Assembly: GCA_964415445.1 (NCBI GenBank)
Contig: CAYQAE010000003.1
Coordinates: 6,192 to 61,534, forward strand
Reading direction: 5' to 3'
DNA from: an uncultured archaeon
GTDB taxonomy: Archaea; CAYQAE01
DNA: 55,343 bases
The position numbers and the translations under genes are program-made. Below, one piece after another: positions 2,020 to 5,002 of this stretch. A model generated the notes under the pieces. That model was not told the origin of the DNA, searched no databases, and saw only the letters and a list, made by a program, of their open reading frames with translations. Each line of letters opens with the position of its first letter. Position 1 is the first letter of the stretch.

Positions 2020-2793
2020 CTATAATTGAGAGAAAATTTGGATTAATTCATCTAAATTTAGATCTTTAACTTTCTTTTGCAAAAATGAATTATCTATATT
2101 TTTATATTCTAAATTTGAAAATTTTAGTGCATTCTTTAGATTCTTTTTTTTATAACAAAATATGGATTTTATGAATTTGAAAAATTTATTTTCATTATCT
2201 AAATCTACCTTTTTGTTTTTTTTAATTTCAATAATTTCTGATGTTACTTTAGGTGGGGGGTAGAATGAATTTGGGCTAACTTCTAATAATTTTTTTATAT
2301 CAAAATAAAAATGAGAAAACACACTTAGTTTAGAATAGTTTTTATCTTTAGGAGAAGCTATAAGTCGTTGTGCAAATTCTTTTTGAATGCAAAGTATAGC
2401 TATATCAAAATAATAACCTTTTATTTTTTCCATTATTTTTGAAGAAATTTGATATGGTATATTTGATACTATTTTATTAGCTTTTGGCCAATCTATTTTT
2501 GTTATATCTGCTTTTATTATTTCTATATTTGAGTATTTTGATAATTCGGCTTTTAAAAGTTGGGTGTATTTTTCATCTTTCTCTATTGCATATACTTTTT
2601 TTGCATTCTCTGCTAAATATTTAGTTAAAATTCCAACTCCTGCACCAATTTCTAAAACAGTATCTTGAAAGTTAATTTGTGCAAATTCTATTTCTTTTTT
2701 TATTATATCTTCTCTATTTAGAAAATGTTGTCCTAATTTTTTTTTAGGATGTAGATTATATTTTTTTATCAGATCAATAAGTTTTGATGTCAT
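2020..2793 (-). CDS. rsmA: 16S/18S rRNA (adenine-N6,N6)-dimethyltransferase KsgA/Dim1
   Basis: LGQHFL motif, SAM-binding EIGAGVGILT, catalytic NIPY. Lies in the conserved archaeal L21e-Rpo4-DUF655-KsgA neighbourhood. Confidence 0.9.
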   Translation of the reverse strand: MTSKLIDLIKKYNLHPKKKLGQHFLNREDIIKKEIEFAQINFQDTVLEIGAGVGILTKYLAENAKKVYAIEKDEKYTQLLKAELSKYSNIEIIKADITKIDWPKANKIVSNIPYQISSKIMEKIKGYYFDIAILCIQKEFAQRLIASPKDKNYSKLSVFSHFYFDIKKLLEVSPNSFYPPPKVTSEIIEIKKNKKVDLDNENKFFKFIKSIFCYKKKNLKNALKFSNLEYKNIDNSFLQKKVKDLNLDELIQIFSQL

Positions 2794-2798
2794 AAGTT
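2772..2798. repeat. Left copy of a perfect 27-bp direct repeat (gatcaataagttttgatgtcataagtt)
   Basis: Letter-for-letter identical to 4976-5002. Contains the ksgA start codon and its first codons on the minus strand. Confidence 0.9.
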
Positions 2799-2940
2799 TT
2801 TATATAATATTCAAAATATTTATTGTAATTTAGATGATTGGTTTTTACATATTTTCAAAAAATATCTTAACTGCACAAAATTAGAAGTTTTTCCTTTGCT
2901 AAGGAATATTTTTTAATTTTTTTCCTATATATCTTACATA

Positions 2941-4197
2941 ATGCCAATCCCAACAAAATATGAAATTCTGAATTTTTCAAAAATAAATCAAGGGAAAAAG
3001 GAGATTGTTCCAAAATACAAAAGAAAATGGTATTTAGATATAAAAAAAGGAATAAAATCTAATTTCATAATTAGTATATGCGGATTTAGGCGTGTTGGTA
3101 AAACTACACTAATAAAGCAGATATTGAATGAACTTTGCGATGATCAAGAAGTATTCTATTTTTCATTTGACGAACAAATTTATTCAAACTACGAGGCACT
3201 AAAGAACATTATTGAAGTTTTTTTAGCTGAATCTGATAGACCTTTAATTGCTCTTGATGAAATTTCAAACATAGAGGGGTGGGCAGGACTTCTTAAACGT
3301 TATTATGATCATAAGGGTGTGAAATTTATAGTTTCTGGCTCTTCTTCATTGAAAACAAAAAAAGGAAAGGAAAGCTTAGCTGGAAGGATAATTGAATTTA
3401 GCCTGCCTCCTCTCCAATTTGACGAGTATTTAGAACTTTCAAATAAATATAAGGAGCCTAAATCTCTATTTAGATCTAAAAGGTATAAAGAAGAACTTGA
3501 GAAATTTTTAGATTACGGCTCGTTCCCTGAGCTTTGCACCGAATTTGATGAAAAACTTATTGATCAGTATATTCGAAACTCAACTTTGGAGAAGATTATT
3601 TTTGAAGATATTCCGTCTGTTTTTAGGATAGAACATGTAAACAAACTTTTTGATCTTTTAGTGTATGTAGCTACCATATCAGGAAGCCTTTTTAATATAC
3701 TAAAGACAAGTGAAATTCTCCAAATAAGCAAAAACACTGTTTCAGATTATATGTTTTATCTAGAGAATGCATATGTTTCATATCAGATCTATACAGAAGG
3801 ATCTTTAGCAAAATCATTTAGAAAAATGAAAAAAGTATTTGTAAGTTCACCTTCAATCTATACTCATTTAACAAAGGATTTTTCTTATGGGGCAAGAGCT
3901 GAAGTTGCGGTATTTGATAAACTTATGAATTCATTTTCAAATACGCCTAAATTCTTTAGAGATTCTCAAAAACATGAAGTAGATTTTATTTTCAAAAAAA
4001 TTCCAATTGAAGTCAAATTTCAAGAAAACATTGCTAAATCTGATCTAAAAAATCTCATCTATTATATGAAAAAGAAAAACAAAGATTCAGCGATAGTTAT
4101 TACAAAAAATATGTTTGATGAGAGAGAAATAGCTTCAAAAAAGATCCTTTTTATTCCGCTTGATGTATTTATTTCACTTAAGGAGTTTCCTCTTTAG
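2941..4197 (+). CDS. AAA-family ATPase with C-terminal DUF4143-like domain
   Basis: Walker A CGFRRVGKTTL, Walker B LIALDEI. Length and C-terminal layout typical of AAA_14+DUF4143 proteins. Confidence 0.7.
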   Translation: MPIPTKYEILNFSKINQGKKEIVPKYKRKWYLDIKKGIKSNFIISICGFRRVGKTTLIKQILNELCDDQEVFYFSFDEQIYSNYEALKNIIEVFLAESDRPLIALDEISNIEGWAGLLKRYYDHKGVKFIVSGSSSLKTKKGKESLAGRIIEFSLPPLQFDEYLELSNKYKEPKSLFRSKRYKEELEKFLDYGSFPELCTEFDEKLIDQYIRNSTLEKIIFEDIPSVFRIEHVNKLFDLLVYVATISGSLFNILKTSEILQISKNTVSDYMFYLENAYVSYQIYTEGSLAKSFRKMKKVFVSSPSIYTHLTKDFSYGARAEVAVFDKLMNSFSNTPKFFRDSQKHEVDFIFKKIPIEVKFQENIAKSDLKNLIYYMKKKNKDSAIVITKNMFDEREIASKKILFIPLDVFISLKEFPL

Positions 4198-4579
4198 TGT
4201 CTATCTTTTTTAATACAAATTTTTTTACTTCTCTTGCAATATTTATGCATTCTTCAGCTTCATCTTCTGTTGGTTGATAAAATTCATCAGGATATCTTAC
4301 TTCTACTGCATAATATGTCAAATTACCGACATCTATTTTTTTAAAATCATTATCTTCTTTAGAACATAATTCCAAAAGAAACTCTAAATTATGAGTTTTG
4401 CCAAATTCTATACTATTTTTAACTAAAAAAGCCTTTAAAAACTTTTCAACTGCTTGTTGAGAATGAAAACATATCGCTTCTGGTATTTTATTTCTTATTG
4501 AAACATTCATCTCATTTTCTGCAACCTGTAAATCGTTTTTAGCTTTGATAATCCATTTTTTGACATATTCATCTATCAT
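4178..4579 (-). CDS. HEPN domain protein (toxin-type partner of the MNT gene)
   Basis: AICFHSQQAVEKFLKAFL helix typical of HEPN. 4-nt overlap with the upstream nucleotidyltransferase gene. Confidence 0.7.
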   Translation of the reverse strand: MIDEYVKKWIIKAKNDLQVAENEMNVSIRNKIPEAICFHSQQAVEKFLKAFLVKNSIEFGKTHNLEFLLELCSKEDNDFKKIDVGNLTYYAVEVRYPDEFYQPTEDEAEECINIAREVKKFVLKKIDTKEETP

Positions 4580-4881
4580 ATATCTATACCTTCTTTTAGT
4601 GCACTTCTTACAACGTTGCCTATTTTATTTTTATAATATTCAACCTCTTCTTTTGATTTAATGATAATATCAGAATCAATTCCTATTTTTGCTAATTTTT
4701 GTCTAAAAATATGAGCTAATTTCATTTTTTCTTTGATTGGAATTATTTTTTTTGTTATTAATAAAATGTCGTAATCACTTTTTTTTGAAAAATCACCTCG
4801 AGCTCTTGAACCAAATAAAATTACATTAGAAAAGATATTATCATTAAATATGGCTTTAATTTTTTGTATTTCATCATTCAT
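4576..4881 (-). CDS. Minimal nucleotidyltransferase (MNT) domain protein
   Basis: ILFGSRARGDFSKKSDYDILL carries the GS...DxD NTase signature. Operonic with the HEPN gene. Confidence 0.8.
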   Translation of the reverse strand: MNDEIQKIKAIFNDNIFSNVILFGSRARGDFSKKSDYDILLITKKIIPIKEKMKLAHIFRQKLAKIGIDSDIIIKSKEEVEYYKNKIGNVVRSALKEGIDI

Positions 4882-4975
4882 ATTATTCGCCTAAATAGAA
4901 ATTCTAAATAATGATTATATTTTAATTCTTTATAAATATATTGCTAGTTTTAGGCTTTAGTTAAAAGAACAATTT

Positions 4976-5002
4976 GATCAATAAGTTTTGATGTCATAAG
5001 TT
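4976..5002. repeat. Right copy of the perfect 27-bp direct repeat
   Basis: Identical to 2772-2798. Encodes the last codons and the stop of the DUF655 gene on the minus strand. Confidence 0.9.

Follow-up and report, generated by a model that had tools for sequence, protein, structure and literature searches.

A three-gene unit between 27-bp direct repeats at the DUF655-ksgA junction of an uncultured archaeon

Insertions that duplicate their target

Insertions of bacterial restriction-modification genes are known that carry long target duplications of variable length and involve no other mobile element (PMC2853133, PMC3874152), a mode described as "insertion with long target duplication" (Nobusato et al. 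2000, Gene 259:99; PMC2853133). In the cases of Furuta et al., none of them archaeal, the duplications extend from 46-47 bp up to ~400 bp, and a 30-bp threshold was applied in order to exclude site-specific recombination (PMC2853133). Archaeal integrated elements are bounded by att sites of 8 to >25 bp in Thaumarchaeota and 29-69 bp in Crenarchaeota, and for 14 of 68 such elements the site is the 3' end of a protein gene (Krupovic et al. 2019, PMC6563490). Casposons and DDE transposons generate fixed duplications of no more than 15 bp (13-15 bp for casposons) and need terminal inverted repeats together with a transposase or casposase (PMC8464041). How toxin-antitoxin genes and small defence genes without mobility genes of their own reach new chromosomal sites is an old open question. 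We know of no demonstration of the enzyme or the chemistry that would produce long target duplications.

Here we describe a unit inserted in the genome of an uncultured archaeon, within a window (the whole stretch of DNA analyzed) of 55,343 nucleotides, for which "insertion with long target duplication" is the closest known kind. As in the restriction-modification cases, a small selfish or defence block is present in one genome and not in its relatives, and the two flanking repeats match one copy at the empty site, occur nowhere else in the genome and, as is often the case, lie over the 3' end of a neighboring gene. Neither kind of insertion has a transposase, integrase or other mobile element linked to it, and repeat length varies from case to case. 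The present locus differs from those cases in its cargo, which consists of an ATPase/nuclease gene and a HEPN/MNT pair, in its archaeal host, in a repeat that at 27 bp lies below the 30-bp cut-off, and in a target that is a functional gene overlap, resolved by the duplication. With archaeal integrated elements (PMC6563490) it shares direct repeats of similar length and a target in the 3'-distal part of a protein gene that is restored by the repeat; unlike them, the unit is only 2.2 kb long, holds three genes, has neither an integrase nor a replication gene, and is flanked by a repeat without dyad symmetry. Casposons and DDE transposons likewise duplicate target DNA on both sides of the insert, but the unit has no terminal inverted repeats and no transposase or casposase, the genome is devoid of Cas1, and a duplication of 27 bp is longer than any transposase duplication that we found described (≤15 bp).

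The repeat, the empty site and the inserted unit

The host genes form a conserved L21e-rpoF-DUF655-ksgA operon on the minus strand. Ribosomal protein L21e (6016-6309) and the Rpb4-like rpoF (5663-6013) lie upstream of the DUF655 gene (4978-5652; Pfam DUF655, 8.5e-66), and the ksgA/rsmA gene for the 16S rRNA dimethyltransferase (2020-2793; Pfam RrnaAD, 1.4e-55) is now 2.2 kb from its operon. Both DUF655 and ksgA are intact, and the C-terminal tail of the DUF655 protein, ...RYTGPTYDIKTY, is common to the three nearest relatives. The inserted unit occupies positions 2799-4975 (2,177 bp, with a repeat period of 2,204 bp) and is single-copy in the genome.

The unit is flanked by the 27-mer GATCAATAAGTTTTGATGTCATAAGTT, present at 2772-2798 and at 4976-5002 with no mismatch between the copies. 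None of 100 dinucleotide shuffles produced such a match, and a search of the 1.96-Mb genome that allowed up to three mismatches gave no further copy. The repeat is exactly 27 nt long, with unlike bases at 2771 and 4975 and at 2799 and 5003, and its edges are abrupt, the adjoining 40 nt being identical at 12/40 and 10/40 positions against a null of 11.8 ± 3.0. An older, longer duplication that had decayed around the 27-mer was ruled out, since flank identity is at chance. Read on the minus strand, the first copy consists of 5 nt followed by the first seven ksgA codons (M-T-S-K-L-I-D), and the second of the last seven DUF655 codons (T-Y-D-I-K-T-Y) with the stop codon, followed by 2 nt. The best inverted arms of the 27-mer match at 6/7 nt, with no dyad-symmetric core; its length and its location at the DUF655 3' end are within what is seen for archaeal att repeats, which span 8-69 bp. 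A preliminary description of this DNA had reported a perfect 27-bp repeat that joins the DUF655 tail to the ksgA start, and both the exactness of the repeat and the two codings hold. Its estimate of ~23 nt for the ancestral gene overlap has to be revised to 20 nt, from ATG to TGA, as is also found in relatives, and the genome-wide search that it suggested gave no further copy of the 27-mer or of the cassette.

An empty site is complete in two related metagenome contigs (L090 and L097) and partial in a third (L091), each with one homologous 27-mer and a 20-nt overlap of the two genes. DUF655 and ksgA overlap by 20 nt both in L090 (744-1427 and 1408-2208) and in L097 (DUF655 end at 463, ksgA start at 444). 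The 27-mers of these two contigs differ from that of the window at 5-7 of 27 positions, and their flanks are collinear with both outer flanks of the window insertion. The cassette is thus a lineage-specific insertion, because both contigs combine an empty site with a single 27-mer and collinear flanks. The single-copy junction that the preliminary description had proposed to look for is therefore present in relatives, and its reading of a cassette that entered the DUF655-ksgA junction while a duplication kept both genes whole is borne out by the empty sites and the intact reading frames. More widely, ksgA lies directly 3' of DUF655 in 21 of 29 genomes and in 50 of 50 further loci with enough downstream sequence. 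Among these more distant archaeal loci, ~70 that extend far enough downstream have the two genes directly adjacent, and the insert was found only in this genome. No closer relative with above 57% identity was present among genome and metagenome contigs, and none of the relatives compared carries two tandem 27-mers and no insert.

Within the unit, a putative promoter/operator module (2891-2940, plus strand) precedes the largest gene and is composed of a palindrome, TTCCTTTGCTAAGGAA, a TATA-like element, ATATTTTTTAA, and a half-site. Homologous modules precede ATPase homologues, and within this genome the module has no second copy. An archaeal promoter motif derived from this genome was too AT-rich to be informative. 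The gene itself (2941-4197, plus strand) encodes a 418-aa AAA_14/winged-helix/DUF4143 protein, with Pfam matches to AAA_14 (1.7e-30) and DUF4143 (1.7e-17), a Walker A motif at residues 48-55 and a Walker B motif at D106-E107. The predicted PD-(D/E)XK residues E346, D348, E357 and K359 are conserved across 38 homologues, among which G48/K54, D106/E107, E346, E357 and K359 are invariant and D348 nearly so; DUF4143 has been placed in the PD-(D/E)XK superfamily (PMC3424549). The AlphaFold model (pLDDT 93.7) resembles Orc1/Cdc6, with matches that cover the AAA+ domain and the winged helix, and a sequence search against the PDB gave no useful match. As judged from Pfam, PADLOC, motifs and predicted fold, the protein, with its N-terminal P-loop ATPase and its C-terminal DUF4143 bearing a PD-(D/E)XK motif, is a member of the COG1373-type AAA_14/DUF4143 ATPases, which PADLOC lists as a candidate defence gene (PDC-S01).

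The other two genes are on the minus strand. The HEPN-domain protein (4178-4579; 133 aa; Pfam HEPN, PF05168, 2.1e-27) is encoded by a gene that converges on the ATPase gene and shares 20 nt with it at their 3' ends, and the gene for the minimal nucleotidyltransferase (MNT; 4576-4881; 101 aa; Polbeta/NTP_transf_2, PF18765 and PF01909, 1e-9), with the motif G24-S and D36-x-D, overlaps the HEPN gene by 4 nt. Adjacent small genes, the presence of both domains and coupled reading frames make this a predicted toxin-antitoxin pair. We rejected the idea of a conserved unit of ATPase and HEPN/MNT genes, as ATPase homologues are solitary or have other neighbors.

The unit is compact and free of pseudogene debris, its end spacers measuring 142 and 94 nt. 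A Pfam scan of its genes and of the neighboring genes revealed no integrase, transposase or other mobility gene, in agreement with the preliminary description, and no terminal inverted repeats of the unit were found. Its GC content (26.6% vs 29% for the genome) gives no compositional sign of foreign origin. In the genome as a whole there are one tyrosine recombinase (Phage_integrase family, 383 aa), located on a 2.7-kb contig, and one TnpB; Cas1, serine recombinase, DDE_Tnp_1, rve and IS110 genes and CRISPR arrays are absent. A casposon- or CRISPR-type duplication was rejected on the absence of Cas1 and of an array. Neither the 27-mer, searched in degenerate form, nor the ATPase was found in IMG/VR contigs.

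Direct repeats around homologous ATPase genes

The ATPase homologues (42-53% identity) are solitary and located at differing housekeeping sites, and paralogous ATPases within this genome reach at most 30% identity (tblastn). Perfect direct repeats of at least 16 bp (16-38 bp) bracket 7 of the 25 loci of ATPase homologues. Such bracketing, which is the new observation here, was found for 3 of 390 similar-sized ORFs of this genome and for none of 105 in control loci (3/495 in total), and one of the three control matches is a paralogous ATPase itself. About 70% of the homologues are without a bracketing repeat. At least three of the repeats correspond to ends of host genes. The repeat of locus L106 comprises the last ten codons of the proteasome alpha gene with its stop codon, that of L133 corresponds to the 3' end of the gene upstream, and that of L129 is located where two genes converge. 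Some four of the repeats do not derive from target sequence but duplicate the promoter module that belongs to the ATPase gene itself. No common motif was found among the target-derived repeats; the motif TTCC...GGAA, which is shared, is part of the ATPase promoter module.

These scars suggest a little-known, enzyme-poor spread of such genes. In the open-access literature searched we found no paper that describes COG1373 genes as mobile or reports target duplications around them, and none on long target duplication for toxin-antitoxin genes; a co-varying palindromic operator upstream of the ATPase gene was likewise not described in the literature searched.

Origin of the duplication

The 2,177-bp foreign unit probably entered the 20-nt DUF655/ksgA overlap by "insertion with long target duplication", with 27 bp of target left on both sides. 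The event would postdate the split of this lineage from its nearest sampled relatives, and would have brought in an ATPase/nuclease gene with its own promoter and the HEPN/MNT pair, with no linked integrase or transposase at work. The likeliest route would be two single-strand breaks ~27 nt apart, followed by joining of the incoming DNA and filling-in of both overhangs. An insertion in the overlap without duplication would destroy DUF655 or ksgA, and survival would need at least 20 nt to be duplicated. The composition of the repeat, which equals the overlap plus 5 nt and 2 nt, would then be expected because only events that duplicated the whole overlap could survive. DUF655 has kept its stop codon and ksgA its start codon, at the cost of translational coupling for ksgA, whose transcription would now have to begin in the AT-rich left end of the unit and point away from the ATPase gene.

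The preliminary description had offered two mechanisms, of which a long target duplication fits better than an attL/attR pair, given a 27-mer that is host- and lineage-specific, shows no dyad symmetry and has no linked recombinase. Since the 27-mer is lineage-specific, an incoming element would not already carry it. The length of 27 bp does fall inside the archaeal att range and below the cut-off of Furuta et al., and the single tyrosine recombinase of the genome could act in trans. Further points against "insertion with long target duplication" are the repeats of ATPase homologues that duplicate the promoter module and a second toxin-antitoxin islet, adjacent to ksgA, in which no significant duplication was found. 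That the element is a remnant, as had also been considered, is unlikely, the unit being compact and intact and homologous ATPase units with comparable scars being present elsewhere.

Site-specific integration would have involved a circular element with a 27-bp junction copy and a tyrosine recombinase encoded elsewhere (the gene on contig C130) or once inside the unit and later deleted. Its product would be formally indistinguishable from a target duplication, a 27-bp repeat at a protein-gene 3' end is typical of archaeal integrated elements (PMC6563490), and a gene of the Phage_integrase family is at hand in the genome. We nevertheless regard this origin as unlikely. No integrase lies in or beside the unit, its short spacers are free of debris, and the 27-mer shows no inverted arms such as a recombinase core would have and, being lineage-specific, would first have to be captured by the element. 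In addition, none of the ~70 other DUF655-ksgA junctions is occupied, the IMG/VR contigs hold neither 27-mer nor ATPase, and the smallest archaeal cryptic integrated element described, of 2.6 kb, still has an integrase. Insertions of the ATPase-unit family at unrelated sequences with variable repeat lengths, which in large number would speak against site-specific integration, are already partly seen. A further, rather unlikely possibility is that the AAA+/winged-helix/PD-(D/E)XK protein is itself the mobility enzyme and would make the staggered breaks that yield 16-38-bp duplications, with the HEPN/MNT pair as a passenger. The strong enrichment of bracketing repeats around the family, the (nearly) invariant nuclease and Walker motifs, the place of DUF4143 within a nuclease superfamily (PMC3424549) and the confidently predicted Orc1/Cdc6-like fold with its DNA-binding winged helix are consistent with this role, and Furuta et al. 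proposed double-strand breakage as a common property of genes that insert in this way (PMC2853133). A like footprint in this same genome, a 35-bp repeat around a two-gene cassette on contig C9 that is without such an ATPase, argues against it, as do the repeat-free majority of homologues and the candidate defence function of the family, which could explain retention and not mobility. Doubtful, too, is the wider proposal that a COG1373-type ATPase gene with its palindromic operator is, in DPANN and other archaea, a minimal mobile element of one gene. Its product would bind DNA and cut it with a stagger of 16-38 nt, so that the gene inserts with or without passengers such as HEPN/MNT and leaves long duplications of variable length, often where housekeeping genes end. 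If this were true, the ATPase would provide the enzyme that "insertion with long target duplication" lacks.

The duplication could also have come before the insertion, if a short tandem duplication uncoupled the two genes and foreign genes were then inserted between the copies, once or repeatedly. The ATPase and HEPN/MNT genes are unlinked in other genomes, so that the content may have been assembled stepwise, and repeats on contigs C35 and C92 of this genome are pieces of longer, messier local duplications. Both copies of the 27-mer are, on the other hand, complete and perfect, and the foreign DNA starts exactly at their inner edges, so that a later insertion must have hit one precise phosphodiester bond; with the tandem intermediate absent from relatives, such an order of events is quite improbable. 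An assembly artefact, in which the chromosome is empty and the assembler threaded a free 2.2-kb circle with one 27-mer into the contig, is exceedingly improbable. The genome is a scaffolded metagenome bin in which 10 Ns immediately precede the window and contigs end in repeats of k-mer length; these exact 55-nt repeats suggest an assembler k of 55. If so, k exceeds the 27-nt repeat, and the reads must contain both chromosome-unit junctions, spanned by real k-mers. Even a free circle would carry the host-derived 27-mer, and would thus have passed through an integrated state.

Following "insertion with long target duplication", recombination between the repeats would precisely restore the ancestral junction, and the toxin-antitoxin pair, through a presumed addiction, or a defence benefit would select against loss of the unit. 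The locus is an unusually clean natural experiment, with a 20-nt overlap of conserved genes as the target, an empty site kept in relatives, a duplication almost minimal for keeping both genes alive and a scar readable to the base. With it, an insertion mode known from bacterial restriction-modification genes would also occur in archaea and with other kinds of selfish or defence genes, and the recurrence of repeats around homologous archaeal ATPase genes makes of one case a hypothesis that can be tested for the whole family.

On the far side of ksgA, the DNA from its stop codon to that of fae-hps holds the second toxin-antitoxin islet. An 18-nt imperfect match there was considered as a similar scar and rejected, as its score of 9, against a null of 7.8 ± 1.9, was equalled by 29% of random pairs.

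The DUF655-ksgA junction and its 27-bp repeat

At this locus all host genes lie on the minus strand, namely L21e (6016-6309), rpoF (5663-6013), DUF655 (4978-5652) and ksgA (2020-2793). Between the last two lies a unit with an AAA_14/DUF4143 ATPase gene on the plus strand (2941-4197) and HEPN (4178-4579) and MNT (4576-4881) genes on the minus strand. The unit is bracketed by two mismatch-free copies of the 27-mer GATCAATAAGTTTTGATGTCATAAGTT (2772-2798 and 4976-5002), a match that was obtained in 0/100 shuffles. The edges of the repeat are abrupt on both sides, with the neighboring 40 nt identical at 12/40 and 10/40 positions vs 11.8 +/- 3.0 under the null. 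In minus-strand orientation, the 27-mer (A-ACT-TAT-GAC-ATC-AAA-ACT-TAT-TGA-TC) reads T-Y-D-I-K-T-Y-stop in the DUF655 frame and ATG-ACA-TCA-AAA-CTT-ATT-GAT (M-T-S-K-L-I-D) in the ksgA frame. The perfect repeat and its coding of both the DUF655 end and the ksgA start, as given in the preliminary description, were thus reproduced; the ancestral overlap proposed there also holds, although the reading frames imply 20 nt rather than about 23 nt. If the repeat arose by a single insertion with target duplication, selection to keep both genes intact would account for its being this overlap plus 5 and 2 nt. Only these two 27-mer copies occur in the whole genome (1.96 Mb, 131 contigs, 98% complete), even allowing 3 mismatches, and the unit is present once.

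Scans of two collections for close relatives returned nothing above 57% identity. Among the DUF655 homologues identified by protein search, those at 74% and 70% identity have the same unusual tail ...RRYTGPTYDIKTY; ksgA homologues were found at 58% and 57% identity. In each of three contigs of related archaea (L090, L097 and L091), a single sequence homologous to the 27-mer is present, differing at 5-7 positions, and DUF655 and ksgA overlap by 20 nt; L090 and L097 show the anticipated empty site in full and L091 in part. The gene order in L090 is L21e-rpoF-DUF655 (744-1427)-ksgA (1408-2208), and in L097 DUF655 ends at 463 and ksgA starts at 444. L091, the Logan contig from the relative with 70% identity, breaks off 16 nt past the DUF655 stop with a tail (3971-3987) that resembles a ksgA start; low coverage or strain variation might be the reason that it ends at the same junction. 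When the outer flanks of the window are joined via one repeat copy, they are collinear with these contigs. In distant archaeal genomes, ksgA immediately follows DUF655 in 21/29 cases, with gaps of about -17 to +15 nt, and it does so in 50/50 further loci with enough downstream sequence. From the single-copy, overlapping junction of these relatives, which are distant (70-78% DUF655 identity), we infer that the 2,177-bp segment is a lineage-specific insertion and that the 27 bp are duplicated target.

The unit and repeats around its ATPase homologues

The unit is compact, consisting of a 142-nt left spacer that holds a promoter-like module, the ATPase gene, a convergent HEPN/MNT pair whose 3' end overlaps that of the ATPase gene by 20 nt, and a 94-nt right spacer. 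Its base composition is that of the host, and it was absent from the viral contigs searched. The ATPase and MNT match the PADLOC candidate defence families PDC-S01 and PDC-S09, respectively. The AlphaFold model of the ATPase is confident (pLDDT 93.7), and its predicted AAA+ domain and winged helix resemble those of Orc1/Cdc6 and STAND ATPases. DUF4143 (COG1373) has been grouped with PD-(D/E)XK phosphodiesterases (PMC3424549). Across 38 aligned homologues, no variation is seen in the Walker A and B residues or at E346, E357 and K359, and almost none at D348. The closest homologues are 50-53% identical and belong mostly to Micrarchaeota and other DPANN archaea.

About 25 loci with homologues 42-53% identical to the unit ATPase were compared, in which the ATPase is a solitary gene wedged among housekeeping genes at sites that differ between loci. 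Perfect direct repeats of at least 16 bp bracket 7/25 of these loci, which are few and not phylogenetically independent, as opposed to 3/390 similar-sized ORFs of the genome that contains the window and 0/105 in control archaeal loci. A paralogous AAA_14/DUF4143 ATPase (C53:8167-9566; 409 aa, with about 29% identity to that of the window), bracketed by the 18-bp perfect repeat GGTGCAAAAATTGTCTGA, accounts for one of the three control hits.

The repeats at the homologues fall into two classes. Target-derived repeats comprise the final 10 codons plus stop of a proteasome alpha gene (L106, a locus identical with L123 and L107; 25 bp without mismatch, or 33 bp if one mismatch is allowed), the 3' end of an upstream gene (L133; 23 bp), a convergent gene junction (L129; 16 bp) and probably the 22-bp repeat of L128. 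In the module-derived class (L099, 38 bp; L122, 31 bp; L096, 31 bp; L132, 18 + 16 bp), the upstream module of the ATPase gene recurs behind the gene in four genomes, in some of them overlapping the ATPase stop codon. This module, a promoter architecture conserved in the family, runs from a palindrome through ATTTTTAAGTTTT and a half-site to the ATG (window 2891-2940; L099, L101, L103, L122, L129 and others). The palindrome varies among homologues yet remains palindromic (GTGCTCTTATAAGAGCAC, TTCCAGCATAGTGGAA; TTCCTTTGCTAAGGAA at 2891-2906 in the window), a pattern that suggests co-evolving autoregulation via the ATPase winged helix.

Other repeat-flanked cassettes and the origin of the insertion

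Similar arrangements occur elsewhere in the same genome. On contig C9, a perfect 35-bp repeat (29408-29442, 30282-30316) surrounds an 839-bp cassette of two genes (98 and 161 aa, neither with a Pfam hit) directly upstream of an ATPase_2/DUF234 gene; the repeat is the final 35 nt, stop included, of a 59-aa ORF adjoining a DUF6036 nucleotidyltransferase. This scar is of the same kind as the window's, without a COG1373 ATPase. On C52, a perfect 63-bp repeat (534-596, 3884-3946) surrounds 3.3 kb of sequence that includes a winged-helix gene and several orphans; it corresponds to the final 21 codons of a 464-aa gene, putatively beta-CASP/metallo-beta-lactamase-like, with an in-frame stop one codon beyond both copies. 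Longer, imperfect local duplications (C35:18149-18929 and C92:689-2570), one with a 59-bp perfect core within about 130 bp and the other with 54-bp and 38-bp cores, surround small gene pairs that by eye look like RHH/RelE and DUF4258/DUF2283 toxin-antitoxin types. Since these cassettes lack the ATPase, the insertion process may not depend on it.

Restriction-modification genes are known to insert with no other mobile element present, leaving long target duplications of variable length (Furuta et al. 2010, PMC2853133; Mruk & Kobayashi, PMC3874152). Their repeats are genome-unique and at times overlap a neighbor's 3' end; as to the mechanism, a connection with double-strand breakage has been proposed (PMC2853133, PMC3874152). 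The repeat described here is 27 bp, whereas those duplications measure between 46-47 and about 400 bp (PMC2853133, PMC3874152); the screen of Furuta et al. used a cut-off of >30 bp, and zero archaeal cases passed (PMC2853133). Casposons generate 13-15-bp target duplications. Our literature search found no description of such a scar at toxin-antitoxin or COG1373 genes. One insertion event of the type with a long target duplication, by an unspecified enzyme, is the best supported explanation and a fairly probable one. Self-insertion by the unit's ATPase/nuclease would be a more specific and more novel version, which we regard as doubtful.

Integration at an att-type site by a recombinase acting in trans would fit archaeal att sites, which measure 8-69 bp and are frequently located at the 3' ends of protein-coding genes. 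Archaeal integrated elements encode integrases, even the smallest at 2.6 kb; in contrast, no integrase, transposase or terminal inverted repeat was found in the unit, in agreement with the earlier statement that the cassette lacks such enzymes. Genome-wide there is one TnpB-like gene and only one Phage_integrase-family gene (C130:201-1352; 383 aa), whose neighbors on a 2.7-kb contig are an orphan gene and an ABC ATPase gene. Cas1, serine recombinase, DDE_Tnp_1, IS110, rve and CRISPR arrays were not found in the genome, although binned assemblies can miss insertion sequences. The 27-mer has no dyad symmetry. As host sequence that varies by lineage, it would not be pre-carried by an incoming element, so the first insertion here must have copied target DNA. 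Att-type integration is unlikely. A two-step origin, in which a tandem duplication was followed by insertion exactly at the boundary of the copies, is less parsimonious than one insertion and very improbable, and an assembly artefact is scarcely credible. Repeat-flanked inserts are readily lost via recombination between the repeats, and those still visible would be the ones that punish loss (toxin-antitoxin pairs) or are useful (defence genes).

Defence-type genes around the operon

The insertion would have severed ksgA from the L21e-rpoF-DUF655 operon with loss of translational coupling, and ksgA would have to rely on a promoter within the unit's left end. On its other side, ksgA adjoins a second islet of toxin-antitoxin genes, about 2.55 kb long (window 1-2019 and, just before it, C3:5658-6191), with MntA, HepT-like, AbiEi and AbiEii genes. 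This islet occupies the space between ksgA and fae-hps, two convergent genes whose stops are separated by only 5 and 11 nt in L090 and L097; a search for repeats flanking it gave nothing significant. Upstream of L21e, a 295-aa gene (6502-7389) with winged-helix and Mrr_cat/DUF234-like parts resembles an ATPase_2/DUF234-type gene reduced to its C-terminal part, with no ATPase domain. With this gene, the unit and the second islet, the conserved L21e-rpoF-DUF655-ksgA operon is bordered on both sides and split mid-way by defence-type genes. As to the assembly, a 10-N scaffold gap (C3:6182-6191) directly precedes the window, and contig ends of C30, C125 and C28 repeat internal sequence exactly over 55 nt (or 40 nt), the 55-nt end repeats suggesting a de Bruijn assembler with k=55.
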